DNA of 64,000 nucleotides, taken from IMG/VR virus record IMGVR_UViG_3300001282_000006. One strand, written 5' to 3'. The notes under the pieces are model-generated. The model saw nothing but the letters and a program-made list of their open reading frames with translations. It did not search any database and was not told the origin of the DNA. The DNA comes from a virus (Duplodnaviria > Heunggongvirae > Uroviricota > Caudoviricetes). Shown here in pieces: positions 8,783 through 57,717 of the stretch (position 1 is its first letter; each line of letters begins with the position of its first letter). Both the position numbers and the translations under genes were made by a program.

Positions 8783-8816
8783 AAAAAGCCTCTGATTTCT
8801 CAGAGGCTTTTTTTTA
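8781..8816. terminator. Bidirectional rho-independent terminator between convergent genes.
   Basis: aaaaaaagcctctga-tttc-tcagaggctttttttt. Confidence 0.75.
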
Positions 8817-8825
8817 AATATATTT

Positions 8826-22470: not shown

Positions 22471-22500
22471 TTAAAAAACAGACAGGAATTTATAAGATAT

Positions 22501-22530
22501 AAAAAAACCCACTCTAGAGTGGGTTTTTAA
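22501..22530. terminator. Bidirectional rho-independent terminator.
   Basis: aaaaaaacccactc-taga-gtgggttttt. Confidence 0.75.
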
Positions 22531-22534
22531 TTTA

Positions 22535-32978: not shown

Positions 32979-32991
32979 TCACTTCTATAAT

Positions 32992-33028
32992 AAAAAAACC
33001 CTTTGATTAATTTCAAAGGGTTTTTTTA
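32992..33028 (+). terminator. Rho-independent terminator.
   Basis: aaaaaaaccctttga-ttaatt-tcaaagggttttttt. Confidence 0.75.
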
Positions 33029-33041
33029 TTTTAAAATATTT

Positions 33042-34618: not shown

Positions 34619-35089
34619 ATGAAAAATCTAAAAACATTTGAAGCTTTTAACAATCCTTATATTGATAGAAGAGTTGTTGCTAGTAGACCTCCTAAAGAGA
34701 TTGCTTACTTAAAAGAACCTGTTGAAATCAGAATTGATGTTGAGAAAGTGAATCACGCTGGTGATAGACAATTTAGACATGGTGCTTTAGAAAATCAAAT
34801 TAAAGACGAAGATATTATTGATACAATTGAATTAGCAATTGAAGAATTGACTATTGCTCTCATGCAAGATAAATTTAATATCTATCAATTAGAAGATAAT
34901 TATCCAACTAAAGGTGTCAAAGAAGGTGAGCCTAATAGATTTGTAATTAAGAATAAAACAAATAACTTAAATGTTGTTTGTCAATTAGTACCAGGTGATA
35001 ATGAATTTAGATTAACTGTTATTACGGTGATGGTTAAACCAGATTTTAGAGCTTACTCTGGTCAATATGTAATTGAAGTAAAATCATAA
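34619..35089 (+). CDS. Hypothetical protein with a CTS-like leader (MKNLKTFEAF).
   Basis: ATG at 34619. The track start 34607 is a TTG. Confidence 0.6.
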   Translation: MKNLKTFEAFNNPYIDRRVVASRPPKEIAYLKEPVEIRIDVEKVNHAGDRQFRHGALENQIKDEDIIDTIELAIEELTIALMQDKFNIYQLEDNYPTKGVKEGEPNRFVIKNKTNNLNVVCQLVPGDNEFRLTVITVMVKPDFRAYSGQYVIEVKS

Positions 35090-35100
35090 ATTTATATAAA

Positions 35101-35140
35101 CAAAAAAAGCCTCAGATAAATCTGAGGCTTTTCTTTTTCT
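35101..35140. terminator. Bidirectional rho-independent terminator.
   Basis: aaaaaaagcctcaga-taaa-tctgaggcttttctttt. Confidence 0.75.
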
Positions 35141-35153
35141 GGTAGAATCAATC

Positions 35154-45081: not shown

Positions 45082-46911
45082 ATGATTGAACAACTAAAAG
45101 AACAAATTATTAAGGCAAATGATGCCTATAGATTGGGACAACCAATTATATCTGATGCTAAGTATGACCAACTAGTTGAAGAATTATCTTTATTATCTCC
45201 AGATGATGAATTACTTACTAAAGTAGGTATTGAAATCGCTGATGAAACTCGTAAATCACGCCTTCCAATTGAAATGGCTTCGATGAATAAAATCAAGTCG
45301 ATGAATGATGTTGATGATTGGTCTCGTCTGAAAGGCATTTCAAAATCTGAATATGTTATTATCACACCAAAGTTTGATGGCTTATCATTATGTGTTAATG
45401 AGGCTACATCTGAAGCTTGGACTCGTGGTGATGGTGAATTCGGTCAAAAATCGAGCGAACATTACGCTTTAATTCAAAATCACTTAAACTTAGAAGAAGA
45501 TCCATTTAGTTTTACTTATGGTGAAGTAATGATACCTAAACAAGTATTCATTGAAAAATTCTCTGCTGATTTCGCCAACCCTCGTAACTTAGTTGCTGGT
45601 TTGTTAAACTCTAAAACTGTAAGTGATTCTCTAAAAGACTGTCAGTATATTAAATATGGTGCTGTTTGTAAAAGAAACTTCACAACTAAACAAGAAGTTA
45701 TTAACGAACTTAATAAAGGACAAGCATCAAAAGTACAATACTATATTTGTCAACTATCTGATTTATCAGAAGACCTGCTTATTGATTTATTTCATAAGTT
45801 CTCTACTGAATATGAAATCGATGGTTTGATTATCGAATTAAATGACTTAAAACTACAAGATAGATTAGGTCGTGAAACTTCTTCAAACAATCCAGTTTGG
45901 GCTCGTGCCTTCAAACATCCAAGTTTTGAGCAATCTGCTGAAACTGATGTTATTGGAATCTCTTGGAATATCTCTAAACAAGGTTTATTAAAACCAATCC
46001 TACACATTACTCCTGTTAAATTAGATGGTGTTACAGTGTCTAACGTGACTGGTAACAACGCCAGATTCGTAAAAGACTTAGGACTTGGTGTAGGTGCTAA
46101 AGTAGTCGTAAAACGCTCTGGAATGGTTATTCCAATCATTGCTGATGTTATCACTCCAGTTGAATTTGTTCAACCTACAATCGAAGGTGTTGAAGTAGAT
46201 TGGAATGAAGCAGGTATCGAGTTAATTACTTTGACCGAAACTGACGACCAAAAGTTAAAAAAGATTGTTGCTTTCTTTGAAATCTTAGAAGCAGACAATG
46301 TGTCAGAAGGAGTTATCACTCAATTATGGGATGCTGGTTATAAAACAATCAAAGATGTTCTTACTCTTACAACTTCTGACTTAGAGAAGATTGACCGTTT
46401 TGGTAAGAGAAAAGCTGACATCGTTTATAAGTCTATTCAAAAATCTGTTAGTAATGTTCAGTTGTCTAAACTACAACATGCTACAGGTATCTTCAAAGGA
46501 TTAGGTTCTAAGAAATTAGTTCTTTTAGAAGATTTCAAAACTAAACCAACTGTTGACCAAGTAATGTCAATTGAAGGATTTGCTGAAGTATCAGCTAAAT
46601 CATATATCGACTCATATGACATTTTCTTTGACTTTATTAAAGATCTACCTGTCACTATTACTGAAAAAGTTGAGGCTGTTAAAGTTGGCACAGACCTTGA
46701 GGGTAAATCATTTGTCTTTACCGGAGTTCGTAGACCAGATTTAGAATCTGATATTGAATCCCGTGGTGGAAAGATTGGTTCTGGTGTATCAAAAACAACA
46801 ACTCACCTTGTTATGAAAGCTATCGGTAGTGGCTCTTCTAAAGAAAAGAAGGCTATTGACTTGGGTGTTGAAGTGATTACCGTTGAACAATTAGAAAAAT
46901 TATTAAACTAA
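45082..46911 (+). CDS. ligA: NAD-dependent DNA ligase LigA.
   Basis: KFDGLS adenylation (KxDG) motif and a C-terminal BRCT domain (GKSFVFTGVRRPDLESDIESRGGKIGSGVSKTTTHLV). Confidence 0.9.
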   Translation: MIEQLKEQIIKANDAYRLGQPIISDAKYDQLVEELSLLSPDDELLTKVGIEIADETRKSRLPIEMASMNKIKSMNDVDDWSRLKGISKSEYVIITPKFDGLSLCVNEATSEAWTRGDGEFGQKSSEHYALIQNHLNLEEDPFSFTYGEVMIPKQVFIEKFSADFANPRNLVAGLLNSKTVSDSLKDCQYIKYGAVCKRNFTTKQEVINELNKGQASKVQYYICQLSDLSEDLLIDLFHKFSTEYEIDGLIIELNDLKLQDRLGRETSSNNPVWARAFKHPSFEQSAETDVIGISWNISKQGLLKPILHITPVKLDGVTVSNVTGNNARFVKDLGLGVGAKVVVKRSGMVIPIIADVITPVEFVQPTIEGVEVDWNEAGIELITLTETDDQKLKKIVAFFEILEADNVSEGVITQLWDAGYKTIKDVLTLTTSDLEKIDRFGKRKADIVYKSIQKSVSNVQLSKLQHATGIFKGLGSKKLVLLEDFKTKPTVDQVMSIEGFAEVSAKSYIDSYDIFFDFIKDLPVTITEKVEAVKVGTDLEGKSFVFTGVRRPDLESDIESRGGKIGSGVSKTTTHLVMKAIGSGSSKEKKAIDLGVEVITVEQLEKLLN

Positions 46912-46915
46912 AAAT

Positions 46916-47245
46916 ATGAAAAAATCCGATCCAATTTTATTTCTTATTGCCTTAACGGTAGGTGTATTTGCTATCTTTGCTTCTTGTGACGGTAAATCCA
47001 AACCCGACCCAGATATCCACTACATTAATATAGATTGTATAATAGTTGAAAAGATATCATCTGTTGGATCTGGTAGACTTACATCAAAAGCATTTTTAAT
47101 CAGAGGTACAAAAGACACAACATTGTATAGTGAGTATGTTGATTTATATCGATATGATATGTCAGACTCTTTATATTACAGTAGTAAAGTTGGTGACACA
47201 TTACACTTTGATTATATTAGAAAAAATAGATTTTTCAAAAAATAA
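46916..47245 (+). CDS. Putative lipoprotein.
   Basis: Signal peptide with a lipobox, LFLIALTVGVFAIFASC. Confidence 0.55.
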   Translation: MKKSDPILFLIALTVGVFAIFASCDGKSKPDPDIHYINIDCIIVEKISSVGSGRLTSKAFLIRGTKDTTLYSEYVDLYRYDMSDSLYYSSKVGDTLHFDYIRKNRFFKK

Positions 47246-47249
47246 CATT

Positions 47250-47633
47250 ATGATTTTAATAGGCATACTTATAGGATTTATTTTAGGTCTTCCAATTGGT
47301 TTTATTAAGTGGAAGAAAAAAACAGTACCACTTGTTGAAAAGTATTCAAGGCGCGGGTTACTTCATAAGAATTTTTCTGTTACTGGTGAACTTACAACTA
47401 GAACAAAAAGTGTTGATGTTCAATATGAGATTGGTGAATTAGAATCAACCGATAAATTATCAAAGATTGAAGTCATTGTACTTAAAGCAGACCAGTCTGA
47501 ATATAATAGTGAATATAATAAAAAGAGATTATTAGAAATGGTTGATAAGACTTGGATTAGTTCTGATGATATTACTTGGATTACAACTGCTGCTGATAAG
47601 AGAAATAAAAAAATTGACGAGATATTGAATTAA
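47250..47633 (+). CDS. Small membrane protein.
   Basis: ATG at 47250, MILIGILIGFILGLPIGFI. Confidence 0.5.
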   Translation: MILIGILIGFILGLPIGFIKWKKKTVPLVEKYSRRGLLHKNFSVTGELTTRTKSVDVQYEIGELESTDKLSKIEVIVLKADQSEYNSEYNKKRLLEMVDKTWISSDDITWITTAADKRNKKIDEILN

Positions 47634-47634
47634 T

Positions 47635-47943
47635 ATGAACTTTGATAAACTAAAATTTCCACACATAAAGTATATCTCTGAAATACAATCAAAAAGTAAA
47701 GAAGAAAGAACACTTTATTATTTAGGCGGTGAGCCTGAAGAAAATGACAGTAGACTAACTATTTATAAAGAATATGAGTTAAGAACTGCTTCTTATTCGC
47801 CATCAAGTGATGTTTATAGAGTAAGTGTTTGGATATGCTCTGATGATGAAGATAAAGGTAAAGTTTGTCAAATAAATCCAAATAATTTTGGTACCTTTGC
47901 TGACTTGCGTGATAAAAAAATTAATCAAATAATAAACCTGTAA
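47635..47943 (+). CDS. Hypothetical protein.
   Basis: 102-aa ORF. Confidence 0.5.
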   Translation: MNFDKLKFPHIKYISEIQSKSKEERTLYYLGGEPEENDSRLTIYKEYELRTASYSPSSDVYRVSVWICSDDEDKGKVCQINPNNFGTFADLRDKKINQIINL

Positions 47944-47952
47944 ATAAAACAT

Positions 47953-48729
47953 ATGAATGATCTAAAAAATGAACAACAATCTACTGAAGAAATTATTGAA
48001 ACAGACACAACTTTTGCTGATATATATGATATAAATTATTCGGGTGAGCAATCACCATTAACGGCAAAAGAAGGCAATATTGAGGATGAATTAATGACTC
48101 CTCAACAAAAAAAGAAACGGCAAAATATGGAACCTAAAAAGGCAATTCTATTCAGTGAACAAGAAAAAGTATTTAGAGAAAGAACGGGTAAAGATTTCTC
48201 ATCATTGTACACAAAGTATTACCCAAAACTAGTATATTTTACAGCTAAAATTACTAATGACCCTCAAAAAGCAGAAGATATCTCAACAGATTCATTCATG
48301 GCGGCTTTTGAGAAGATTGAGAAGTATGAAAAAGAAAAATCTCAATTCTCTACCTGGCTATTTACAATAGCAAAAAATCTAGCATTACAAGACCTTAAAA
48401 ACGAAAAGAAAACAATGTCGTTAGATATTGAGTTCGATGATGAAGGAACAACAATGAAAGACTTCATTCAAGAAGACGAAGGTGACAATTTCATGCATGA
48501 GATTCATGCTAAGAAAGCTGACATTATGAAGAAGCACATTGAGAACTTGAAGAATCCTTATCGTGATGTAATCGAAATGCGTGAGTTAAAAAGAATGTCT
48601 TATAAAGATATCTCCGATAAACTTAACCTAAACCTATCAACAGTTAAATCACAAATTCGTAACGGAAGAGCTATCTTAGTTCGTGAGACTAAGAAAGAGT
48701 TTGACGCTATCGATGAAATGTTAATGTAA
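47953..48729 (+). CDS. Sigma-70-family RNA polymerase sigma factor (regions 2 and 4).
   Basis: Region-2-like FMAAFEKIEKYEKEKSQFSTWLFTIAKNLALQ. Region-4 HTH YRDVIEMRELKRMSYKDISDKLNLNLSTVKSQIRNGR. Confidence 0.75.
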   Translation: MNDLKNEQQSTEEIIETDTTFADIYDINYSGEQSPLTAKEGNIEDELMTPQQKKKRQNMEPKKAILFSEQEKVFRERTGKDFSSLYTKYYPKLVYFTAKITNDPQKAEDISTDSFMAAFEKIEKYEKEKSQFSTWLFTIAKNLALQDLKNEKKTMSLDIEFDDEGTTMKDFIQEDEGDNFMHEIHAKKADIMKKHIENLKNPYRDVIEMRELKRMSYKDISDKLNLNLSTVKSQIRNGRAILVRETKKEFDAIDEMLM

Positions 48730-48735
48730 TTATTT

Positions 48736-50046
48736 ATGAATATAGAATCTCTAGGAAGACAGGCTATAGATAGAATCAAGTCTGAATGGGGCTTGCCCCT
48801 ACATGGATTTGTAGCTGGAGGTGCCATCGCAAACATTGTTTGGGAATTGGTATCAGGTAACAAAGCCGTGGTCAATGATATTGACATCTTTGTTTTTGAT
48901 GGTATTGAAAAGGAATTAGACAATGATAAAAAGTCCCTTTTTAATTATCAAGAAAAAGAAACAAAGTATTATGAAGACTACAATGGTATGAATTTTAATA
49001 ATTATACCAAGGATTTCTATTCTATAGTCGAGTCTGAGAGAGACGATATGTTTAATACGATTAAGTATAAATCAAACACATCAGACCCTTCTTTAATTAT
49101 TAAGTCATTTGATATCAATGCCACTCGAATTGGCTACGATATTGATAATGATAAATTATACTGGACTTCAGAATTTGAAGACTTCTTAAAAACTGGTGAG
49201 TTAAAGATTTCAAATATAATGACACCTTCACATACAGCTGTTAGAATTGCCAAAAAGAGTAAAGAGTTAAATGCTAAGTTGTATGATTTTGAATTTAAGT
49301 TACTTCAATATGCTCTTTCTTATAGATTCATTGATAGAATAAAACTAAGATTTAGAGAAAGGTATTTAGAAATGTGTAAAGATAATAAAGACTTATTATC
49401 ACCATATTTTCAAATGTCAAGAGATTTAGAAGCAGAAGAATATGTATTCACAAAAGTTGGTGAAAAAGTAGAACTTTATTACTTGGTTGCTAGAGATATT
49501 AAAAAAGAAGTAACAGAAGTTCCATTGACTGATAATTTTGAAAAAATAGTTTATAGCAATCTTCCTCAAATATTTGAAGATGATAACATTAATAAGATAT
49601 TTAAATCAACTGACTTCTTATTCTATATGAGAAATATCTATGGCAAGGATCAAAACTTGAAAGATATGTGGTCTAAATTATATTACTTCTTTAATGATGT
49701 TCATTATATTGATAGAGAAGTGAGCCAAGAAGACTTAGACTTATTACAAAGATTTGGTAAATATGCTCCTGGTTCTATTGAGAACTTAAAAGGATTAAAG
49801 ATGTCTGAGCAAATTGAAGTTATTAAAAAGTTCTTAGATAAGTTCAAAGAAGATCCTATTATAGCAATTTCTATTTTAGAAAGTGTTAAGGTAGATAAAG
49901 ATATTATTTTGGATGAACAAACAATGTTATTATTAGAACTTTCTGTTAGAAAAAAGATTGTTAATGATACAAGAGGAAAGGTTAATAAAATACTAAATAT
50001 AGAAGAAGTTATTGACAAGAATAATAATGACATCTGGATGTTTTAA
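48736..50046 (+). CDS. Nucleotidyltransferase-fold protein, possibly a tRNA CCA-adding enzyme.
   Basis: N-terminal GFVAGGAIANIVWELVSGNKAVVNDIDIFVF resembles the CCA-enzyme GGxVRD..LG....DxDxxT motif. Confidence 0.35.
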   Translation: MNIESLGRQAIDRIKSEWGLPLHGFVAGGAIANIVWELVSGNKAVVNDIDIFVFDGIEKELDNDKKSLFNYQEKETKYYEDYNGMNFNNYTKDFYSIVESERDDMFNTIKYKSNTSDPSLIIKSFDINATRIGYDIDNDKLYWTSEFEDFLKTGELKISNIMTPSHTAVRIAKKSKELNAKLYDFEFKLLQYALSYRFIDRIKLRFRERYLEMCKDNKDLLSPYFQMSRDLEAEEYVFTKVGEKVELYYLVARDIKKEVTEVPLTDNFEKIVYSNLPQIFEDDNINKIFKSTDFLFYMRNIYGKDQNLKDMWSKLYYFFNDVHYIDREVSQEDLDLLQRFGKYAPGSIENLKGLKMSEQIEVIKKFLDKFKEDPIIAISILESVKVDKDIILDEQTMLLLELSVRKKIVNDTRGKVNKILNIEEVIDKNNNDIWMF

Positions 50047-50090
50047 ACTTTCTCAATATATTCAATATAAAATAAAAATAAATTATTACG

Positions 50091-50459
50091 ATGATAGCAT
50101 ATATAACAGAATTAAACGGTGAGAACTATGATGATTTCGTTAAAGAAGGTATAGTACTTGTTGATATTTGGGCACCTTGGTGTGGTCCTTGTAAAATGAT
50201 TTCTCCAATTATAGACCAAATTTCTTCAGACTACTTTGAAAAAATCACAGTTGGTAAATGTGATGCTGACGCAAATAGAGATAAAGTTATGGAACTTGGT
50301 GTTAGAAATATTCCAACAATCTTCTTTTATAAAGATGGTCAAATTGTTGAATCTACACACGGGGCGGTAACTAAGAAAAAATTAACTGAAATTATTGATG
50401 GTTTATTAGCACCTGCCGAATCAGTTGATTCTATTGACAACACTGACACTGACTTTTAA
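50091..50459 (+). CDS. trxA: Thioredoxin.
   Basis: WAPWCGPCKMISP active site. Confidence 0.9.
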   Translation: MIAYITELNGENYDDFVKEGIVLVDIWAPWCGPCKMISPIIDQISSDYFEKITVGKCDADANRDKVMELGVRNIPTIFFYKDGQIVESTHGAVTKKKLTEIIDGLLAPAESVDSIDNTDTDF

Positions 50460-50470
50460 AATAAAGTCAA

Positions 50471-51064
50471 ATGAAAAACATTGAATATTTTTTTGAATTA
50501 ATACAAAAATCTGATATATCTCTTTTGGGGTATAGATTCAAGCAGGAAAGACTCAAAGACGAGATTATTTCTAAACTACCTCACTTGGTGGTTCCTGAAA
50601 TAGACTCGTCTTTTTCTTTTAAATCTTTTTTAAGAGATTTGAAACTTCAATCAATTTTAGAAACTGGTAATACTGTAAACAATCCAGAGTATCTTGTTTT
50701 AGATTTAAATGAGATTATATTTAAGTCAGATGATTTAGGAGGTAGACAAAATCAAATAGGAAATATTATTAATAAAATCAGAGAAGATTTATACTCAAAT
50801 TATTCTGATGTTTACCCTCAAACACCACCTTATAAACTTTTAATGTTAACATCACTATATAGTAGTGTAAAGAATGTTGATGATGCTAGTATTACAAATT
50901 TCAAAGGTGGTAGTAAACCAATTTATGTAAGTGATGTGGCTATTGTGATGGAAGAGGAGTCAATGAAAGTAATAAAGAATAGATTTGATGATAACAACAT
51001 TGATATTTCTTACAACAAATTAAAAGATTATAACTATATTTGTAACTATGAAAATAACAACTAA
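50471..51064 (+). CDS. Hypothetical protein.
   Basis: 197-aa ORF. Confidence 0.55.
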   Translation: MKNIEYFFELIQKSDISLLGYRFKQERLKDEIISKLPHLVVPEIDSSFSFKSFLRDLKLQSILETGNTVNNPEYLVLDLNEIIFKSDDLGGRQNQIGNIINKIREDLYSNYSDVYPQTPPYKLLMLTSLYSSVKNVDDASITNFKGGSKPIYVSDVAIVMEEESMKVIKNRFDDNNIDISYNKLKDYNYICNYENNN

Positions 51065-51482
51065 TAGAAAAGCTTATTATGAATACTTTGTGTTGGAAGA
51101 CTTCGACGCAGGTGTAATGCTATTGGGAGCTGAAGTTAAATCAGTTAGAGAAGGCAATGTTTCTATAGTTGATTGTTTTGCTTATATCACTAATGGTGAA
51201 GTTTGGTTAAAGAATATGAAAGTAGCCAGATATAAACAAACACATGTGGCTGAAAAACATGATGAAAGTCGAGATAAGAAATTACTTCTTAATCGAAAAG
51301 AGATTAATAGAATTGAAAAGTTACTTCAAGATAAAGGAACAACTATGGTTCCACTTGAAATATTTACAGCACATAACCGTGTAAAGGTTAAGATTGGTGT
51401 TGTTAAAGGAAAAAAGTTGTACGATAAAAGAGAAACAATCAAAAAAAGAGATATGGATCGAGAGATCCGTCGAACGGTATAA
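51048..51482 (+). CDS. smpB: SsrA-binding protein SmpB.
   Basis: NRKAYYEYFVLEDFDAGVMLLGAEVKSVREG...KKLLLNRKEI...KVKIGVVKGKKLYDKRETIKKRDMDRE aligns along its whole length with bacterial SmpB. Confidence 0.85.
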   Translation: MKITTNRKAYYEYFVLEDFDAGVMLLGAEVKSVREGNVSIVDCFAYITNGEVWLKNMKVARYKQTHVAEKHDESRDKKLLLNRKEINRIEKLLQDKGTTMVPLEIFTAHNRVKVKIGVVKGKKLYDKRETIKKRDMDREIRRTV

Positions 51483-51483
51483 A

Positions 51484-51846
51484 ATGGCTCGTAAATTAAA
51501 AGATATTAAACCTATATTAGAAGATTTAAATAAATCTTTGACAGAAGAAGAAATACTCAAACATCTTATTCTGTTAGTTAAAGGTTTTGATCCAAATCAA
51601 TATAGAGAAGTTATATACAGTAATCCATATTACAAGGCTTTAATACCAGATATTCAAAAAGATATAATTGAAGAGTTGGAAAAAATTAGTAAATCTATAC
51701 AAAATGAGATAGATACAATTGAATCTGATTTAAAAAAAGCCACTATAACATCAGCTAAAGAATTAAAAAAATTGAAAAGTGATTGTTTATCTTTGATATA
51801 TGAAATTGATGAGCGTAAAAAAGAAATTGATTCCTTATCTAAGTAA
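51484..51846 (+). CDS. Hypothetical protein.
   Basis: ATG at 51484 (MARKLKD...). Confidence 0.5.
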   Translation: MARKLKDIKPILEDLNKSLTEEEILKHLILLVKGFDPNQYREVIYSNPYYKALIPDIQKDIIEELEKISKSIQNEIDTIESDLKKATITSAKELKKLKSDCLSLIYEIDERKKEIDSLSK

Positions 51847-53532
51847 AGAATCAATATATCTTTCAATTTGTTTAGCCTTTTTAATATCTTCTAAAACTTC
51901 ATTTCTTCTTCTATCATTATCACATTCATTAATATAATATCTGACATCATTGGTATAATGAAATTCGTTTAGAATATTTCTAGTATAACCAAATGAAAAT
52001 CCTCTTTCACTAGCTAAATTTCTAATAGACCTTAATTTAACCATAATCATTCCCAAATCTTCAATAGTTTGAATGTTTTGTGAAAGTAAATAATTTTTAA
52101 TTTTCTTACCAATTTCTATAAATATTTTAAATATTTCTTTAAGTGGTTCTATATCACTATTATTAACTTCTTTAAGAGACTCATTATATTGTTTTGTATA
52201 ATCTTCAGAATATGAATTCAAACTTTTAAAAGAACTAATTATACTTGAGAGATAGTAATCTCTATCATTTCCATCAGTAGACTTCATCATATCATAAATA
52301 TAACCAGACATACTATCTAAACTATCAAATCCTGGTCTGCCTTTATAAATAGAAATAAAAGCTAAATCACCACAAACAGATTTTATTACCAACTTTTGAA
52401 GATTTTTAAGTTCTTTGATATCTTTATCAATACCCATTTTACCAACAATCGCAGTTAAATATCTTTCAATGTTTGCTCTTTTAATCTGAGAATCGGTCAT
52501 TAATTTAGTAGCACCTTCTCTTGATTCTTCTCTATTTGTTTTAATTTGATTAACTGGAACTTTAACTGATTTAAGTATATCATCAAGCATTAAAACAATT
52601 GAAAAGTCGGATTTTTCAACTAATGTATAATCATCTATTGACCAAGATGTATCACCCCATTCTCTTAAACCATAACTACTATTTAATGGTAAATTGAAGT
52701 CAAGAGGGCTTTCTTTTTCTTCTTCTTTTACTTCTTCTCTTTTAACACCTTCTATATGTAAAGGTTCTTCTGATGGTGTATAAATGTGTAATTTATTATG
52801 GTCAGAACCTGGAGAACTAACTGAACCCATATGCCAAGATCTTGAAAATGGTAAATAACCATCTTCATTTTCTTCACCATCTTCATCTCTCCAATTTCTC
52901 CAACTTTCACCATCTATTTGACCATCTGGTTCACCGCCTCCAGCAACACTTTGAATTCCATGAAGATCACCATATCCATCTCTCCAAATTTTAGCTAAAC
53001 CCATTCTTGACATATCATCTTCATCATCAGAGAATATACCAATTACTAACTGTTTGTGTGTCAAGTCTTCATAATTTTTAAGTGGTGTGAGTTTACCGGT
53101 TTTAATATTTAATCGATTTTTTATATAATCTAATTCATTATTGCTAAAATGTGAATTTCTATTACGACTTCTATTTCTGTTATTATTATATTTGATATAT
53201 GATTTAAAATCCATACTAGTATTACCAGTGCCGGTAAATCCTAAATATCCTTCATCCATTGAAAACCAAAACTTTAAACAATAAATTTCTTTATAATTTT
53301 CAACTCTGTCTACATTTCTAAGTTTAAGAGCTTGATTTCTATTAAGATATTTAACATCTTTATCACTTATCTTATCAATAGGAATATCAAATTGGGTAAT
53401 CAATCTTTTTAATTTATCCTTAAATCTTTCTTTAGAATTAGTATCTACTTTTTTAGCTAAGAACTTCATCATTTTTGATAAAGCATTAGATTCAAAAGCT
53501 TCAAATAACATTAAGTGTTTCATGTTTGACAT
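51835..53532 (-). CDS. Hypothetical protein with a CTS-like leader (MSNMKHLMLFE|AFE|S).
   Basis: 565-aa ORF. AATATATACATT sits directly upstream of the ATG. Confidence 0.7.
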   Translation of the reverse strand: MSNMKHLMLFEAFESNALSKMMKFLAKKVDTNSKERFKDKLKRLITQFDIPIDKISDKDVKYLNRNQALKLRNVDRVENYKEIYCLKFWFSMDEGYLGFTGTGNTSMDFKSYIKYNNNRNRSRNRNSHFSNNELDYIKNRLNIKTGKLTPLKNYEDLTHKQLVIGIFSDDEDDMSRMGLAKIWRDGYGDLHGIQSVAGGGEPDGQIDGESWRNWRDEDGEENEDGYLPFSRSWHMGSVSSPGSDHNKLHIYTPSEEPLHIEGVKREEVKEEEKESPLDFNLPLNSSYGLREWGDTSWSIDDYTLVEKSDFSIVLMLDDILKSVKVPVNQIKTNREESREGATKLMTDSQIKRANIERYLTAIVGKMGIDKDIKELKNLQKLVIKSVCGDLAFISIYKGRPGFDSLDSMSGYIYDMMKSTDGNDRDYYLSSIISSFKSLNSYSEDYTKQYNESLKEVNNSDIEPLKEIFKIFIEIGKKIKNYLLSQNIQTIEDLGMIMVKLRSIRNLASERGFSFGYTRNILNEFHYTNDVRYYINECDNDRRRNEVLEDIKKAKQIERYIDSLLR

Positions 53533-53539
53533 AATGTAT

Positions 53540-54018
53540 ATATTAAAATTTATTTGGTAAATTGAAACTTTCTTTCTACATTTGTATAAGAATTAACCAA
53601 GAGTCGTTAAGACAAGAGCTAAGAAATTAGCGTGTCGAAAGATTTCACATTAATATATGATAAAACCGTGTGAGTCTTAACGAAATTATGGTAGTAAGTA
53701 GCTGTTAAATAAGTTAACACCCTTGTTAAAGCCAGTGAACTACCTTGTAAATATAACTATATAATAATAGTAAGGGTGTAGATATCGAAGTCGTGTTGGT
53801 GATAGATGTCTCAAATAACTAATGATTAAACCCAACTCAAAGAAGATTTTAAACGAGCAGAATGGTAACACTGCTCAACCGAGGCGAAAGCATATTAAAA
53901 GGTAATCCTAAGTGATGAGGTCACTAAAAGTCAAGGTAAGGTTCTCGGATTTCGACCATACTTGACAGACGTTCCACCAATCTTCTTTTTTAATTGTAAA
54001 TAAGTAAATAAAAATAAA
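53540..54018. other. 480-bp ORF-free region that is GC-richer than its surroundings. It is a candidate structured non-coding RNA or regulatory region (tmRNA partner of SmpB, or an origin).
   Basis: No ORF longer than 28 aa in a genome otherwise packed end to end. Local GC is clearly above background. Confidence 0.25.
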
Positions 54019-54423
54019 ATGACACTGAAAGAAAAAATCAACGCAGACTTTATGACAGCATTTAAGTCTAAGAACATGGTAGCAAAAAGCATACTATCTG
54101 TTGTTAAAGGAGAAATTCAAACTGTAGAAAAGAATATTGGTTCTGATAATCTTTCAGATGTTGAGGTAACTAAAATTCTTACAAAAACTGTAAAGTCTCT
54201 TAAAGAAACTATTACATTAAGCAATGACGAAAAATCTAAAGTAGAATTGTCAGTAATTGAAGTTTATCTTCCAACACAAATGTCTAAAGAAGAAGTTACA
54301 GCTAAAGTAACAGAACTTGTTAATTCTGGAATCACACAAATCGGTGCTATTATGAAAGAATTCGCAACTCTTCCAGCTGATAAGAAAATGGTTTCTGAAT
54401 CAATCAAAGAAGTTATTAAGTAG
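54019..54423 (+). CDS. GatB/YqeY-domain protein.
   Basis: MTLKEKINADFMTAFKSKNMVAKSILSVVKGEIQ fits the YqeY family pattern. Confidence 0.7.
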   Translation: MTLKEKINADFMTAFKSKNMVAKSILSVVKGEIQTVEKNIGSDNLSDVEVTKILTKTVKSLKETITLSNDEKSKVELSVIEVYLPTQMSKEEVTAKVTELVNSGITQIGAIMKEFATLPADKKMVSESIKEVIK

Positions 54424-55278: not shown

Positions 55279-55527
55279 ATGGAAAACAAATTTAGAAACG
55301 CACTAATTATTATAGCTATTGCTTTTTCAGCATTTGCTTTTTATAACTTATACTCTTCAAGAGATTATAAACTTACAGTTTGTAATGGGTCAGGTTTTAC
55401 ATATATGGAAACATTTATTTACTGTGACTCATTTGAAATGGTTTCTATTAACGAAGTTAAGTTCTGGGTAGATGGTAAAGAACAAACAGTTTTGGCAACA
55501 GATTGTATCAGAGTTGAAACAAATTAA
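55279..55527 (+). CDS. Small membrane protein.
   Basis: N-terminal TM segment ALIIIAIAFSAFAFYNLY. Confidence 0.45.
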   Translation: MENKFRNALIIIAIAFSAFAFYNLYSSRDYKLTVCNGSGFTYMETFIYCDSFEMVSINEVKFWVDGKEQTVLATDCIRVETN

Positions 55528-55767
55528 TAAAAAAATAAAAAATATTAGGTGGAATTAAAACTTTTATCTATATTTGTATAAAATAAGAACAAAATAACCA
55601 AAAGGAAGAAATCCTTTTTAATATATAAAGAAATGACAACAAATCGCACACATAAACATTTTAGTAAATCGAGCAAGTGGTTTAGCACCCAGTTCGGTAC
55701 TGAAAGAGTATTGCGTGATTTGAAGGATGTCATTTAAGATTATCTAGAAAATTAAAATCAATATATC

Positions 55768-55799
55768 AGTCCGAACTTCAAAAGAGTTCGGATTTTTTG
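55768..55799 (+). terminator. Rho-independent terminator immediately preceding the tRNA cluster.
   Basis: gtccgaact-tcaaaag-agttcggattttttg. Confidence 0.7.
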
Positions 55800-55808
55800 T
55801 TTTTATAT

Positions 55809-55894
55809 GGTGTCGTTATTGTTAATGGAGAATCGAAAGATGAGCATTTAACTCTGTGAAAGTTAAGGTACGGGTTCGAATCCCGTACGACACC
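55809..55894 (+). ncRNA. tRNA-like element with canonical acceptor and T arms. The D and anticodon region is atypical or carries an insertion.
   Basis: GGTGTCG...GTACGGGTTCGAATCCCGTAC-GACACC. The internal region does not fold as a standard D or anticodon arm. Confidence 0.3.
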
Positions 55895-55900
55895 CAAATT

Positions 55901-55973
55901 GGAACCTAAGCTAATCAGGTGAAAGCACTGGACTGAAAATCCAGGGAGCCCGGATCGTTACCGGGAGGTTCCA
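55901..55973 (+). tRNA. tRNA with a GAA anticodon (Phe-like) and an atypical T-loop ATCGTTA.
   Basis: GGAACCT..CTGGA-CTGAAAA-TCCAG..CCCGG-ATCGTTA-CCGGG-AGGTTCC-A. Confidence 0.45.
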
Positions 55974-56050
55974 CGGAGTCCTGAGATAAACAGGAGACCC
56001 CCACTCCCATATGGCAGTCAGTCCGGTAATCTGATGAAGTGGGGTATTAT

Positions 56051-56124
56051 GGTGAATGTAGCTCAATCGGTAGAGCGCTGGTTTGTGGTACCAGAGGTAG
56101 CGGGATCGTAACCCGTCATTTACC
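56051..56124 (+). tRNA. tRNA-His(GUG) with the extra G-1:C73 pair.
   Basis: G-GTGAATG-TA-GCTCAATCGGTAGAGC..CTGGT-TTGTGGT-ACCAG..GCGGG-ATCGTAA-CCCGT-CATTTAC-C. Confidence 0.65.
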
Positions 56125-56129
56125 CAAAA

Positions 56130-56201
56130 GGAGACTTAGCTAAGTAGGTTTAGCGTCCGGTTGAAGCCCGGAAGAGATCGGTTCGATTCCGGTAGTCTCC
56201 A
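56130..56201 (+). tRNA. tRNA-Phe(GAA).
   Basis: GGAGACT-TA-GCTAAGTAGGTTTAGC-G-TCCGG-TTGAAGC-CCGGA..ATCGG-TTCGATT-CCGGT-AGTCTCC-A. Confidence 0.65.
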
Positions 56202-56207
56202 CAACAT

Positions 56208-56278
56208 ACGTCATACAGACAAGGTGTCGGTCAGGTCTCCAAAACCTCGACGGTGGGGTTCGATTCCTCAATGGCGTG
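56208..56278 (+). tRNA. tRNA-Trp(CCA).
   Basis: ACGTCAT..AGGT-CTCCAAA-ACCT..TGGGG-TTCGATT-CCTCA-ATGGCGT-G. The acceptor stem pairs along its full length. Confidence 0.55.
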
Positions 56279-56337
56279 CTAATATTATAAAAGAAAAATT
56301 AAAAGAAATGAAAACAAAATTGAAATATAAACGCTAG

Positions 56338-56363
56338 GCAACGATTCATACGGATCGTTGCCC
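56338..56363 (+). other. Perfect 9-bp hairpin inside the tRNA cluster (processing or terminator element).
   Basis: GGCAACGAT-tcatacgg-ATCGTTGCC. Confidence 0.4.
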
Positions 56364-56376
56364 TCAATAAGACAAT

Positions 56377-56449
56377 GATTCCGTAGCTCAATCGGTGGAG
56401 CTTCCGACTTTTAATCGGAAGGTTGTGGGTTCGAACCCCACCGGGATCA
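56377..56449 (+). tRNA. tRNA-Lys(UUU).
   Basis: GATTCCG-TA-GCTCAATCGGTGGAGC-T-TCCGA-CTTTTAA-TCGGA-AGGTT-GTGGG-TTCGAAC-CCCAC-CGGGATC-A. Confidence 0.75.
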
Positions 56450-56463
56450 CTAAAAACACAAAT

Positions 56464-56546
56464 GATCCTGTCGCTTAGCGGCTATAGCAACTGGCTTTTA
56501 ACCAGTAGATTAATTTCAACCGTGGGTTCGAGTCCCACCAGGATCA
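56464..56546 (+). tRNA. tRNA-Lys-like paralogue (UUU anticodon as read) with a 15-nt variable region.
   Basis: GATCCTG..ACTGG-CTTTTAA-CCAGT-AGATTAATTTCAACC-GTGGG-TTCGAGT-CCCAC-CAGGATC-A. Confidence 0.45.
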
Positions 56547-56555
56547 CTAAGTAAT

Positions 56556-56638
56556 GCGTCTGTCGCTTAGTGGCTATAGCAACTGGCTTTTAACCAGTAG
56601 ATTAATTTCAACCGTGGGTTCGAGTCCCACCAGACGCA
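56556..56638 (+). tRNA. Tandem near-identical copy of the previous tRNA with a different acceptor stem (GCGTCTG/CAGACGC).
   Basis: The body is identical to 56464..56546 except for one D-loop base. All seven acceptor-stem base pairs are replaced. Confidence 0.45.
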
Positions 56639-56645
56639 CAAAATT

Positions 56646-56729
56646 GATTCCGTCGCATAGCGGCGATTGCGCCAGACTCTTAATCTGATGATGAAAAGTC
56701 CACCGTGGGTTCGAGTCCCACCGGAATCA
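56646..56729 (+). tRNA. tRNA-Lys-like paralogue (CUU anticodon as read) with an expanded variable region.
   Basis: GATTCCG..CAGA-CTCTTAA-TCTG..GATGATGAAAAGTCCACC-GTGGG-TTCGAGT-CCCAC-CGGAATC-A. Confidence 0.4.
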
Positions 56730-56738
56730 CAAAAAATG

Positions 56739-56879
56739 GAGAGAGTAGCTCAGTTGGTAGAGCACGTTATTATACTCTGATAAGTATTCTCTGATTACGG
56801 TTAACGTAATTAGTAGTGATGTTAAGAGTTACTTCGGCTGTTAACCGCGTGGTCGTAGGTTCGAGTCCTGCCTCTCTCC
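56739..56879 (+). tRNA. tRNA gene interrupted by a ~65-nt insertion (putative small intron). A possible anticodon arm CGG-CTGTTAA-CCG gives GUU/Asn.
   Basis: Canonical GAGAGAG-TA-GCTCAGTTGGTAGAGC 5' part and GTAGG-TTCGAGT-CCTGC-CTCTCTC-C 3' part, separated by extra sequence containing AGAGTTACTTCG. Confidence 0.4.
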
Positions 56880-56945
56880 CTAGTTATGAGACTGTTTAGA
56901 ATTTTATCGACTTGGCACTTTTCAAGTAACGTAATAAATTCATTT

Positions 56946-57073
56946 GGGGATGTAGCTCAGTGGTAGAGAAAACTATCTCTTTTGAAATTTTACCTCGTAA
57001 GAGTGTTGATTGAGAGAGTTACTTCGTATATTTTGAAATTATAAGGTCGTTGGTTCGAATCCAACCATCCCCA
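56946..57073 (+). tRNA. tRNA gene interrupted by a ~55-nt insertion related to the one in 56739..56879.
   Basis: GGGGATG-TA-GCTCAGTGGTAGAG...GTTGG-TTCGAAT-CCAAC-CATCCCC-A. The insert contains GAGAGTTACTTCG and a duplicated TTTTGAAATT. Confidence 0.4.
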
Positions 57074-57116
57074 CAAAAAAAGAAGAATAAAAAATTAATA
57101 TATAACAAATAAGATT

Positions 57117-57194
57117 ATGAAAACAATTATTAACACATCGTCAAAATCGTCAAGTCGCTCGTCAAAAATGAGTGAGGTTCGATCGTGTTCATAA
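57117..57194 (+). CDS. Possible 25-aa Ser-rich micro-ORF inside the tRNA cluster.
   Basis: ATG preceded by TTAATATATAAC and followed by a terminator. MKTIINTSSKSSSRSSKMSEVRSCS. Confidence 0.15.
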   Translation: MKTIINTSSKSSSRSSKMSEVRSCS

Positions 57195-57214
57195 TATTCA
57201 AATAAGATATTAAA

Positions 57215-57251
57215 GAAACCCTTCGAACATCAGTTTGAAGGGTTTTTTGTT
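57215..57251 (+). terminator. Rho-independent terminator between tRNA sub-clusters.
   Basis: aaacccttc-gaacatcagttt-gaagggttttttg. Confidence 0.7.
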
Positions 57252-57258
57252 TTTATAT

Positions 57259-57333
57259 GGTTCTATAGTTTAACTGGATAAAACACTCGGCTACGAACCG
57301 AGAGACGTGAAGGTTCGAATCCTTCTAGAATCA
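57259..57333 (+). tRNA. tRNA-Arg(ACG).
   Basis: GGTTCTA-TA-GTTTAACTGGATAAAAC-A-CTCGG-CTACGAA-CCGAG..GAAGG-TTCGAAT-CCTTC-TAGAATC-A. Confidence 0.7.
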
Positions 57334-57338
57334 CAAAT

Positions 57339-57422
57339 GGAGAGGTAATTTAGCTGGCGCTAAAGCTAGTCTTGAAAACTAGTCGTACCTACGGGTATGG
57401 GGATCGATACCTCACCTCTCCG
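57339..57422 (+). tRNA. tRNA-Ser(UGA), class II.
   Basis: GGAGAGG..CTAGT-CTTGAAA-ACTAG, long variable arm CGTACCTACGG, TGGGG-ATCGATA-CCTCA-CCTCTCC-G. Confidence 0.65.
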
Positions 57423-57427
57423 CAACC

Positions 57428-57513
57428 GGAAGGAGTCCGAATGGACGAGGACACCGCCTTGAAAGCGGCTGGGTCGAAAGGCTTTGGGGGTTCGATTCCC
57501 TCTTCTTCCGCCA
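57428..57513 (+). tRNA. Second class-II tRNA with a UGA anticodon (Ser) and an encoded 3' CCA.
   Basis: GGAAGGA..CCGC-CTTGAAA-GCGG, long variable arm, GGGGG-TTCGATT-CCCTC-TTCTTCC-G-CCA. Confidence 0.55.
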
Positions 57514-57515
57514 AT

Positions 57516-57601
57516 GGAGAGTAAACTAGTCAGGGTACTAGCACCGCCTGCTAAGCGAGTGGCACAATAAAATGTGTGAGTTTCGAATACTCTGCTCTCC
57601 G
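57516..57601 (+). tRNA. Class-II tRNA, probably Ser(GCU). The anticodon stem is weak.
   Basis: GGAGAGT..CTGCTAA loop, variable hairpin CACAATAAAATGTG, TTCGAAT T-loop, GCTCTCC-G. Confidence 0.45.
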
Positions 57602-57613
57602 CAAAAGATAACT

Positions 57614-57700
57614 GGAGAGTTGTCCGAGTGGTTTATGGAGCACGCTTGGAAAGCGTGTGTACTTGAAAGAGTACCGAGGGTTCGAATCCCTCACTCTCCG
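57614..57700 (+). tRNA. tRNA-Ser(GGA), class II.
   Basis: GGAGAGT-T-GTCCGAGTGGTTTATGGAGCA-CACGC-TTGGAAA-GCGTG-TGTACTTGAAAGAGTACC-GAGGG-TTCGAAT-CCCTC-ACTCTCC-G. Confidence 0.7.
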
Positions 57701-57717
57701 CATAAAAATTAAGAATT

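Follow-up and report, generated by a model that had tools for sequence, protein, structure and literature searches.

Within one clade of huge phages, smpB, a pseudoknotted RNA of about 400 nt, and yqeY form a conserved three-part module, identified here in the window, by which we mean the whole 64-kb stretch of viral DNA analyzed (Table 1). While phage-encoded SmpB is known already, the structured RNA within a smpB-RNA-yqeY module is new. The SmpB itself is genuine and full-length, yet no canonical tmRNA was detected to accompany it, and we consider it about an even call that a functional phage SmpB works with the tmRNA of its host.

Table 1. Coordinates of the features discussed, numbered from the first base of the window
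Feature	Position	Strand	Description
197-aa ORF	50471..51064	+	No Pfam match; overlaps smpB start by 17 nt
smpB	51048..51482	+	144 aa, full-length SmpB; basic C-terminal tail (GKK...DKR...IK..D..R)
120-aa ORF	51484..51846	+	Begins one base past the smpB stop codon; function not assigned
565-aa ORF	51835..53532	-	Antisense; stands between smpB and RNA in the window's lineage
Promoter-like motif	53553..53584	+	Bacteroidota-type (TTTG, 20 nt, TAcaTTTG), 5′ of the RNA; kept in the alignment of relatives
Structured RNA	53595..53992	+	~400 nt; ends inferred; no Rfam family
5′ hairpin	53604..53683	+	UCGUUAAGAC (53604-13) pairs with GUCUUAACGA (53674-83); inner hairpins; MFE fold
Pseudoknot A	53690..53778	+	GGUAGU/ACUACC (53690-95/53739-44), CUG/CAG; loop CACCCUU (53718-24) with AAGGGUG (53772-78)
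Pseudoknot B	53780..53836	+	AGAUAUC/GAUGUCU (53780-86/53805-11); loop GUGUUGG (53793-99) with CCAAC (53832-36)
RNA 3′ domain	53839..53988	+	Closing helix 53839-48/53979-88 around H1, H2, H4, H5
H1	53855-60/53871-76	+	Invariant loop AAUGGUAACA
H4 and variable H2	H4 53911-16/53920-25	+	
H5	53930-35/53961-66	+	Inner GGUU-CUCGGAUUUC-GACC at 53940-57
Junction strand ..GUUCC	53967-78	+	Invariant
yqeY	54019..54423	+	GatB/YqeY-type domain, 134 aa; Pfam YqeY-like PF09424
tRNA gene array	55811..57701	+	Translation-related surroundings

The SmpB protein and the search for a tmRNA

Identification of the protein as SmpB was consistent across all of the resources used. The Pfam SmpB profile (PF01668) matched with an E-value of 4e-53 (179.6 bits, cutoff 27), aligning residues 3-143 to profile positions 1-140 of 143, and both NCBIfam SmpB equivalogs (TIGR00086 / PRK05422) scored well above their curated cutoffs (181.1 versus 130 and 174.4 versus 119.1). 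Solved SmpB structures were also matched (7ljp at 6e-36, 1p6v at 1e-35), with the C-terminal tail KGKKLYDKRETIKKRDMDREIRR included. Thus, the end-to-end SmpB alignment that the first-pass annotation had proposed, tail and all, is confirmed with an E-value far inside significance.

Across 14 phage SmpBs with 45-100% identity, the invariant residues include N6, K8, G22, E29, K31, S32, L80, L81 and K113 in the body of the protein and G121-K122-K123, K127, I131, K132, D135 and R138 in the tail, with D126 conserved in at least 90%. We take these conserved columns to correspond to the Escherichia coli tmRNA-binding residues L91 and K124 and to the tail motifs GKK and DKR (D137-K138-R139). This pattern points to selection for canonical trans-translation, and the identical protein is present on 110 contigs. 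SmpB requires its C-terminal tail solely to act productively on the ribosome, whereas it can bind tmRNA without it, so a protein that merely sequestered tmRNA could dispense with the tail. Strict conservation of the tail motifs therefore disfavors the suggestion that the phage protein poisons host tmRNA; a decoy of this kind, shutting down host trans-translation, seems very improbable, although no partner RNA is recognizable and there are known phages that rely on trans-translation or disturb it (cited in PMC7162821).

Virus-encoded SmpB had been described in the first-pass annotation as very rare, which proved wrong: the GenBank phage collection has 68 records of it, IMG/VR has 190 SmpB-encoding stretches, and at least eight huge-phage genomes of Al-Shayeb et al. 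2020 have an "SsrA-binding protein" annotation. That study (PMC7162821) places SmpB among the many translation genes of huge phages and reports tmRNAs in some of them. The SmpBs of these phages belong to the same family as the one studied here, with identities of 70% (LR756502.1), 62% (LR745206.1), and approximately 44% (Lak phages), and their genomes share its neighborhood, including tRNA arrays downstream, with SmpB already annotated in the two closest genomes. By comparison, SmpB and tmRNAs are presented there as a translation repertoire, and the smpB-RNA-yqeY module does not appear in the portions of its text and supplements covered by our search. Nothing describing this RNA was found in the literature on yqeY- or SmpB-associated phage RNAs.

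For the 64-kb window, neither ARAGORN (default and 90% thresholds) nor Rfam, with standard and permuted tmRNA models at gathering scores and at E ≤ 10, identified a tmRNA, which upholds the absence of a canonical gene previously judged by eye. When the 451-nt ORF-free region was searched alone, none of the Rfam models for tmRNA, tRNA, RNase P or T-box matched, and the tRNA array likewise had no tmRNA by either method. An element at 55811-55890, considered as a detached acceptor piece, is like a tRNA-His gene (G-1:C73, loop CUGUGAA) whose D region is enlarged, and not an Ala-type tRNA-like domain. As positive controls, ARAGORN recovered Bacteroides tmRNAs and, in 12 other SmpB-bearing viral contigs, a canonical tmRNA close to the smpB gene.

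Since the 64-kb window is only part of a genome whose size is likely in the range of 480-640 kb (contigs of relatives measure 476, 630 and 642 kb), SmpB and tmRNA could form an ordinary pair with the tmRNA gene elsewhere in the roughly 0.5-Mb genome, as the tmRNAs reported in some huge phages (Al-Shayeb et al.) would allow. Two viral contigs, L329 (IMGVR_UViG_3300035703_000016; 158 kb) and L331 (3300026549_000034; 193 kb), illustrate such a pair: both are large and AT-rich (about 28-29% G+C), with SmpBs 47-49% identical to the one studied here, but in each a standard tmRNA (tags AKVELSTWTVEDALAFVDGEYAVAA and DDTTTYRMAA) is encoded 1-5 kb from smpB, and both yqeY and the RNA are missing. However, the closest complete relative, LR756502.1 (642 kb; syntenic), encodes 46 tRNAs, yet ARAGORN recovers no tmRNA from it, whether thresholds are left at default or relaxed. 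An HMM of Bacteroidetes tmRNAs likewise gave no hits in that genome, a result to which we attach little weight. Nor was a tmRNA found within 10-20 kb on either side of SmpB in 15 relatives, and ARAGORN found none near SmpB at any of the 25 IMG/VR loci with at least 54% identity. A partner outside the window, one of the options raised earlier, is therefore disfavored, and we regard an ordinary pair as quite unlikely.

Structure and synteny of the RNA

The RNA is real in its existence, its structure and its synteny. We identified 113 true copies, one per genome and all in huge-phage contigs, and the DNA of the RNA is 75.8% identical to that of LR745206 while the SmpB proteins of the two share only 62%. 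Carriers come from freshwater, marine and sludge samples and represent one widespread phage clade. Folding energy is low (MFE z-score -2.4), and a search of the region against Rfam 15 at E ≤ 10 (RNase P, T-box, GOLLD, ROOL, 6S, SRP, group I and others) returned only a 15.5-bit chance match to mir-263. A reading of the region as RNase P-like (AAAGUC...ACAGA) was rejected given the wrong order of elements and the negative Rfam result.

Covariation supports both pseudoknots. The 5′ hairpin has compensatory changes in the alignments, as judged by eye. Helices 1-3 of pseudoknot A, which includes an AGUA/GAA internal loop, are 93-100% paired, with both-side changes in 4 of 7 pseudoknot pairs; in pseudoknot B, all seven pairs of helices 4-5 show compensatory changes, and helix 6 is 91% paired and mostly invariant. 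A third pseudoknot was seen in compact lineages, again by eye. For the 3′ domain, 22 pairs were 96.8% paired and 12 of them had compensatory changes, a level reached by none of 500 shuffles; its closing helix is 6-12 bp long in 45 of 45 representatives despite differing sequences, and a covariance model of the domain (R1) scores 166 bits at the window locus. The H1 loop AAUGGUAACA and GUUCC are also invariant in the SmpB-anchored sample. An additional hairpin, H3 (AGG-UAAU-CCU), was discarded as the variants GAUAAG and GUUAAG break its pairing.

The motif preceding the RNA belongs to a class with 12 occurrences in the window, where 5.6 ± 2.4 would be expected, and it probably acts as a promoter. 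A scan for sigma-70 promoters and terminators stayed at background level, a type of scan not applicable to this promoter class. Together with the closest relatives, the promoter motifs point to a host among the Bacteroidota.

With respect to gene order, 43 RNA loci have sufficient flanking sequence, and at 38 of them smpB lies upstream on the same strand, as near as 281 nt (directly adjacent) and as far as 3.9 kb; this linkage persists through at least five intervening arrangements, direct adjacency included. Compact lineages have smpB, RNA and yqeY with nothing intervening, and the 565-aa antisense ORF is missing there. Upstream, the plus-strand block runs sigma factor, Gad2-like gene, thioredoxin, 197-aa ORF and smpB, with the 197-aa ORF kept as the neighbor of smpB in all 10 contigs displayed. 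On the other side, yqeY begins 38-80 nt downstream of the RNA in 92 of 101 loci. The RNA is tied more tightly to yqeY than to smpB. Assignment of yqeY is supported by a PF09424 match (E = 2e-15, 57.6 bits, cutoff 27) that aligns residues 4-131 to profile positions 1-141 of 143, and the YqeY-like or GatB tail domain binds tRNA, as known from GatB and Deinococcus GlnRS. In the window, yqeY starts 30 nt past the closing helix of the RNA with no promoter motif between them, and RNA and yqeY are probably co-transcribed.

These observations would fit a 5′ leader that acts in cis on yqeY, perhaps by mimicking tRNA so that YqeY can regulate its own synthesis, and that is unrelated to SmpB. Partial RNAs, with only the 5′ module (L276-L281) or only the 3′ module (L014), still stand directly upstream of yqeY, and near SmpB yqeY was seen only in the RNA-bearing clade. 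However, the RNA occurs without yqeY at nine loci, and at seven of these smpB is its immediate upstream neighbor; L277-type copies have a hairpin and U-run terminator ahead of yqeY; and known protein-binding leaders are far simpler than a 400-nt element containing several pseudoknots and invariant loops. We therefore entertain the leader role only tentatively.

Candidate partners of the phage SmpB

The ORF-free region at 53.5-54.0 kb had been suggested as the site of a divergent or permuted tmRNA linked to SmpB. A conserved, covarying RNA that is preceded by a promoter motif and syntenic with smpB does exist there, but no tmRNA, standard or permuted, is recognizable in it. Among the features expected of a tmRNA, the RNA shows only the linkage to smpB and the pseudoknots, namely several of H-type with a long helix leading to a compact domain. 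It had no match to covariance models RF00023 or the permuted RF01849-51, nor by ARAGORN, and it has neither a 7-bp acceptor stem with G3:U70, nor a T-arm with a GUUCRANYC loop, nor a conserved 3′ (A)CCA. No complement of the ..GUUCC strand occurs in the RNA except the H1 loop with one base bulged, and no 5-bp stem carries a 7-nt T-loop. The bases 3′ of GUUCC vary (ACC, AAC, CAA, CUC, UCU and others), with ACCA in some lineages only, and the strand leads straight into the closing helix, whose 3′ strand runs on into a U-tract and yqeY with no evident free acceptor end. Frames read by eye in the alignments yielded no tag with a resume codon and stop: two structural motifs containing UAA are separated by just 3-4 codons, which encode unrelated peptides (VAVK, VVA, VMS, VAG, VVD and others), and other candidate frames are interrupted by indels whose lengths are not divisible by three. 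With nhmmer, an HMM built from 80 bacterial tmRNAs had no match among 82 phage RNAs, and in the other direction HMMs for the two RNA domains reached a best E-value of 6 among 88 tmRNAs of bacteria and viruses. The tRNA model (RF00005) did not match the 3′ domain, where likeness to a D-loop is limited to the H1 loop.

Several more specific candidates were also rejected. A permuted or two-piece tmRNA, with the closing helix as P2, the H5 loop as D-loop analogue and H1 as T-arm or microhelix, has no T-arm and no G:U. The AACCA following H1 is not conserved (AAAGA, AACUA and AAAUA variants), and neither the frame nor the peptide is conserved for the tag ORF UAA GUA GCU GUU AAA UAA and a frame through GUGUUGGUGAUAGAUGUCUC. 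Short string matches to Bacteroides tmRNA, when checked on real sequences, were non-significant by nhmmer in both directions.

The RNA might still be the real partner of SmpB as a radically remodeled tmRNA analogue, maybe processed or permuted and maybe not aminoacylated, in a particle with SmpB and YqeY, an idea we consider unlikely. Its position in compact lineages is that of ssrA in many bacteria and in the viral contigs L312, L320, L321, L330 and L339, and its string of H-type pseudoknots followed by a long helix closing a compact domain resembles tmRNA architecture. The H1 loop AAUGGUAACA is the same as the consensus AaUGGUAa that Rfam prints for the D-loop of tRNA, the H5 loop-plus-stem CUCGGAUUUCGAC resembles the conserved tmRNA 5′ motif cuGGaUUCGAC, which is the binding region of SmpB, and the invariant GUUCC(A) resembles a T-loop; moreover, the SmpB and YqeY families both bind tRNA-like RNA, and the complete relative LR756502.1 has no canonical tmRNA. 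Against this stand the missing tmRNA hallmarks and negative searches described above, and the motif likenesses are short, with a rough chance of approximately 0.5% per 400 nt for GGNUU(N)CGAC before post-hoc choice. The two RNA modules also occur separately in phages with intact SmpB (the 5′-only and 3′-only copies), and Lak and 735-kb phages have no copy within 20 kb of SmpB. As all carriers belong to one clade, synteny between smpB and the RNA may be inherited rather than selected. It is equally doubtful that smpB-RNA-yqeY encodes an unrecognized ribonucleoprotein in which an RNA with a tRNA-elbow-like 3′ domain replaces tmRNA and YqeY is the third component. The RNA of such a particle would be either a tmRNA, permuted or diverged in the extreme, whose acceptor end is exposed by processing, or an SmpB-dependent ribosome-targeting RNA without tagging.

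Use of the host tmRNA is the option best supported by a conserved SmpB without a detected tmRNA: because no canonical tmRNA was found, host-encoded tmRNA is most likely what the phage SmpB loads, and by topping up or replacing host SmpB the phage protein could keep stalled-ribosome rescue going during infection, beside the phage's large tRNA set. Persistence of SmpB where the RNA is partial or was not found also counts for this model. Besides the partial copies, neither RNA nor tmRNA was found within 20 kb of SmpB in Lak-A1, Lak-B1 and LR756501, and L274, L280 and L284 retain SmpB with neither RNA nor yqeY; stretches beside SmpB in the former three that had seemed free of ORFs proved to contain coding sequence, through TAG read-through under code 15 and small ORFs. 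Against the model, it does not account for the smpB-RNA linkage at 38 of 43 loci, which mirrors bacterial smpB-ssrA adjacency, and the distant, huge-phage-like L329 and L331 encode their own canonical tmRNA, so self-sufficiency occurs among large SmpB-bearing viral contigs. With host tmRNA as the favored partner, the RNA most likely has a role of its own related to translation or tRNA, or serves as a leader or partner of yqeY, rather than being the obligate partner of SmpB.

Comparison with known systems

In this huge-phage clade, a fully conserved SmpB without a detected tmRNA is followed by an unclassified structured RNA at the usual place of ssrA and then by a protein of tRNA-binding type. 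If SmpB borrows host tmRNA, this would be ordinary, one more case of huge phages supporting host translation. If the RNA is the partner, it would be the first non-tmRNA ligand of SmpB, which to our knowledge has only been shown to work with tmRNA, and would offer viruses a new way to address stalled ribosomes. Either way, the family, with 113 copies, two pseudoknots and the invariant loops AAUGGUAACA and GUUCC, is a target for Rfam curation, binding tests and structure work.

Compared with bacterial SmpB-tmRNA (ssrA), the phage system shares a full-length SmpB with core and tail and a pseudoknot-rich RNA downstream on the same strand, as ssrA is in many bacteria, but tmRNA is undetectable and the RNA has no acceptor stem, T-arm, conserved CCA, tag frame or tmRNA similarity. 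The order of pseudoknots, helix and compact domain corresponds to one possible permutation of the two-piece tmRNAs of alpha- and beta-proteobacteria and cyanobacteria (RF01849-RF01851); those, however, keep the T-arm, acceptor stem with G:U, CCA and tag ORF, and are detectable by ARAGORN and Rfam, none of which applies here. From general knowledge of the GOLLD and ROOL families, the RNA resembles them as a highly structured phage RNA of several hundred nucleotides with no assigned function in tRNA-rich surroundings, yet it has no Rfam match, is smaller, and is specifically linked to smpB and yqeY.

SmpB of the window and of related huge phages

The 144-aa smpB ORF aligned end to end with the Pfam SmpB model (E = 4e-53), matched both of two NCBIfam SmpB equivalogs with scores far over the cutoffs (one with 181 bits against a cutoff of 130), and aligned with solved SmpB structures, among them those of Aquifex, Thermus and E. 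coli, at E-values down to 6e-36, basic tail included, bearing out the full-length SmpB of the first-pass annotation. Across phage SmpBs at 45-100% identity, L80, L81, K113, GKK, K127, I131, K132, D135 and R138 were constant; by comparison with E. coli SmpB, these positions correspond to residues that bind tmRNA and to the tail that acts on the ribosome. As far as sequence can tell, this conserved core and tail argue for canonical trans-translation, and the invariance of the tail motifs from GKK to R138 argues against the alternative that SmpB is a mere decoy.

The window has a G+C content of about 30% and a high coding density, and includes a tRNA array spanning 55.8-57.7 kb. The Bacteroidota-type promoter motif (TTTG, 17-23 nt, TAnnTTTG) occurred 12 times against 5.6 ± 2.4 expected, an excess that gives modest support to a Bacteroidota host; the same phylum has been proposed to host this phage clade. 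Nearest to the SmpB region were two huge phages of Lac Pavin type described by Al-Shayeb et al. 2020 (PMC7162821), LR756502.1 (642 kb; 70% SmpB identity) and LR745206.1 (635 kb; 62%), followed by Lak megaphages and a 735-kb phage with SmpBs about 44% identical. An SmpB protein identical to that of the window was carried by 110 contigs, and relatives at 83-92% identity lay on contigs of 254-630 kb. The first-pass statement that virus-encoded SmpB is very rare is contradicted by 190 SmpB-encoding stretches in IMG/VR, by the inclusion of tmRNAs and SmpB among the huge-phage translation genes listed by Al-Shayeb et al. (PMC7162821), and by the supplementary GenBank files of that study, where at least eight genomes, both closest relatives included, have a gene annotated as 'SsrA-binding protein'. 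The window gene is a further case of a known type, annotated before in sister genomes. Two genes upstream of it, a 436-aa ORF with a precomputed match to PF26128 (Gad2), presumably an anti-Gabija nucleotidyltransferase, and a weak match to NTP_transf_6 may be an anti-defence gene within the translation-gene block.

Coordinates of features in the window and in related loci
Feature	Sequence	Coordinates	Strand	Remarks
Block upstream of smpB	window	45082-50459	+	NAD-dependent DNA ligase; sigma-70-family factor (47953-48729); thioredoxin (50091-50459)
436-aa ORF	window	48736-50046
smpB	window	51048-51482	+
ORF-free stretch	window	53533-54018
Bacteroidota-type promoter motif	window	53553-53584		conserved; start of ORF-free stretch; from sequence and relatives
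Structured RNA	window	53595-53992	+	about 400 nt; ends inferred
yqeY	window	54019-54423	+
5'-only RNA	L276; L277; L281	8480-8706; 8554-8784; 8452-8706		adjoining yqeY, upstream
3'-only RNA	L014 (LR756502)	24230-24455		directly upstream of yqeY
Weak 3'-domain match	L014 (LR756502)	14336-14537
tmRNAs with long tags	L285, L286, L288; L329	~1430-1823; 182-656
Small ORF, hairpin, tRNA	window	55634-55800; 57118-57250
tRNA-His-like	window	55811-55890		anticodon loop CUGUGAA
tRNA-Ser-like	window	56207-56278; 57336-57420; 57427-57510; 57512-57600
tRNA-Lys	window	56464-56547; 56556-56639; 56646-56730
tRNAs with insertions	window	56739-56879; 56946-57073		first: anticodon loop CUGUUAA (Asn)
Sub-threshold Rfam clusters	window	8742-8848; 22469-22555; 32945-33035; 35076-35205	both

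Canonical tmRNA searches and the tRNA array

As first noted by eye, the 64-kb window holds no canonical tmRNA: ARAGORN predicted nine tRNAs and zero tmRNA, unchanged with lowered thresholds, and Rfam gave tRNAs alone at gathering scores, with no match to the tmRNA clan at E ≤ 10. Both methods recovered Bacteroides tmRNAs as a positive control. No tmRNA was detected within ±10 kb of SmpB in any of thirteen relatives from metagenomes or IMG/VR, nor within ±20 kb in either LR756502 or LR745206 (ARAGORN run on eight of these flanks, Rfam on three). For the complete LR756502.1 (642,428 bp, joined from 14 pieces before scanning), ARAGORN found 46 tRNAs and no tmRNA, also at relaxed thresholds; a Bacteroidetes-tmRNA HMM returned no match there either, a result given little weight. 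Across IMG/VR, a canonical tmRNA adjoined SmpB in 12 of 80 SmpB loci by ARAGORN, among them AT-rich viral contigs of 158 and 193 kb that have their own tmRNA 1-5 kb from smpB. Ordinary SmpB-tmRNA pairs exist in large viral contigs, with none in this clade as far as visible, and a canonical tmRNA elsewhere in this particular phage genome is quite improbable. Four SmpB loci with canonical tmRNA (L285, L286, L288 and L329) had unusually long and acidic tags, ANVELSTWTFEDAMAFAEGELEMAA and AKVELSTWTVEDALAFVDGEYAVAA, which ARAGORN did not recognise.

Several tRNA genes of the array were missed by ARAGORN. Two of them (Rfam 42-45 bits) contain insertions of about 55-70 nt between D-arm and anticodon stem, off the usual intron site, that have the 3' string GAGAGUUACUUCG in common. 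The tRNA-His-like gene, with G-1:C73, a perfect T-arm and a D region about 13 nt larger, scored just 27 bits against the tRNA model of Rfam; in LR745206, ARAGORN placed a tRNA-His just upstream of the tRNA-Phe corresponding to that of the window. Four others resemble, by eye, tRNA-Ser genes in that their variable arms are long; two of the four had sub-threshold tRNA-Sec model matches (38.7 and 27.3 bits). The three tRNA-Lys genes have variable regions enlarged by 10-13 nt (e.g., GAUUAAUUUCAAC), unusual in class I tRNAs and present in all relatives scanned. At two places a small ORF precedes a hairpin, a T-run and the sequence TTTTTGTTTTTATATGG, a tRNA following directly, and 55519-55974 is 79% identical to LR745206, unusually high for this genome pair. 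The Rfam clusters lie at gene ends and include matches to Phe/Thr leader, STnc370 and MicC, among others; they have the look of terminator hairpins separating convergent or tandem genes, not of members of those RNA families.

A structured RNA between smpB and yqeY

The ORF-free stretch was 84-100% identical among close relatives and 75.8% identical to LR745206, whereas the SmpB proteins of that pair share just 62%. The invariant 18-mer GCAGAATGGTAACACTGC used as a probe matched 11 IMG/VR loci (L024 by chance) and a gapped motif 97 loci in metagenomes of lakes, sea water, sludge and digesters; after dropping 12 chance matches, the RNA loci numbered 113, with 84 distinct 3' domains. The single-sequence fold (z = -2.4) consists of a 5' hairpin, two H-type pseudoknots (A and B), and a helix-closed 3' domain with H1, H2, H4 and H5. 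In the 3' domain, compared across 45 representatives, 22 pairs were 96.8% paired and 12 changed on both sides, values reached in none of 500 shuffles, with slid controls at most 42% paired; the closing helix formed 6-12 bp in 45/45 despite very different sequences. In the 5' part, compared across 26 representatives, 28 pairs, both pseudoknots included, were 95% paired, 16 with compensatory changes (0/500 shuffles). The H1 loop AAUGGUAACA and junction strand GUUCC were constant also in a sample gathered by way of SmpB instead of the motif, the one exception being a U-to-A change shared by two loci. A 3'-domain covariance model matched a single copy per sequence in LR745206, LR756502 and the window, and none in the SmpB neighbourhoods of the more distant phages Lak-A1, Lak-B1 and LR756501. 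A second, weak match in LR756502 (22 bits, E ~0.08), 5.5 kb upstream of smpB, may be chance.

Same-strand SmpB lay upstream of the RNA in 38 of the 43 loci whose upstream flank spans at least 4.3 kb; among the other five, L223 is a chance motif match and four look like the 'GUCGAU' variant of H5, the placing of L246 being tentative. The yqeY start fell 38-80 nt past the RNA in 92 of the 101 loci whose downstream flank spans at least 500 nt. Distances from SmpB stop to RNA core formed classes of about 0.3, 0.63, 1.9-2.1, 2.3-2.6 and 3.2-3.9 kb, the shortest having the order smpB-RNA-yqeY with no gene intervening. With SmpB as the starting point, 17 of 25 IMG/VR loci at ≥54% identity had the full RNA, five (L276-L279, L281) had a ~200-nt RNA of 5' hairpin, pseudoknot A and terminator alone with yqeY directly downstream, and three (L274, L280, L284) had neither RNA nor yqeY. 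LR756502 shows the converse form, the last pseudoknot and 3' domain alone, and no yqeY was found near SmpB outside this clade. Because of these separate forms and the synteny counts, the RNA is modular, most tightly tied to yqeY, and an ancestral neighbour of smpB. It matched no Rfam 15 family (window at E ≤ 10; ORF-free region alone), and literature searches returned no description of it or of a smpB-RNA-yqeY module; against these sources, both the module and the RNA family are new.

Possible SmpB partners and comparison with tmRNA and tRNA

Canonical trans-translation requires an aminoacylated tRNA-like domain. Since no phage tmRNA is detectable and SmpB persists without the full RNA, being kept in relatives missing one or other RNA module as well as in Lak and 735-kb phages, for which no RNA copy was found near SmpB, the most economical reading, to which we give about an even chance, is that phage SmpB works with, and would load, the host tmRNA. 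A host tmRNA leaves the smpB-RNA linkage unexplained, so the RNA, together with YqeY, might instead be a non-canonical SmpB partner; the same persistence of SmpB counts against this, and we consider it unlikely. A role of the RNA as yqeY leader or partner is at least as likely as one with SmpB.

Compared with Bacteroides tmRNA sequences and their Rfam structure, the RNA shows short likenesses: its H5 loop and stem CUCGGAUUUCGAC to the conserved tmRNA 5' motif cuGGaUUCGAC, its strings UUGACAG and AUGGUAGUAAGUAG to AUGGUGAGUAAGCAUG, an AGUA/GAA-type internal loop in both, and a pseudoknot string that a long helix connects with a compact domain. However, it has no acceptor stem, G3:U70, T-arm or conserved reading frame, and the bases past GUUCC are variable and lead directly into the closing helix. 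The divergent or permuted tmRNA once suggested for 53.5-54.0 kb thus stands as a conserved structured RNA and is not classed as a tmRNA, standard or permuted, because all defining features fail, covariance models and ARAGORN gave no match, and nhmmer showed no similarity in searches run both ways. There are resemblances to tRNA: the H1 loop is identical to the tRNA D-loop consensus given in Rfam, and GUUCC(A) resembles a T-loop string. Although both elements are invariant, so that covariation has no bearing on it, a tRNA-elbow-like fold of the 3' domain is a reasonable inference.
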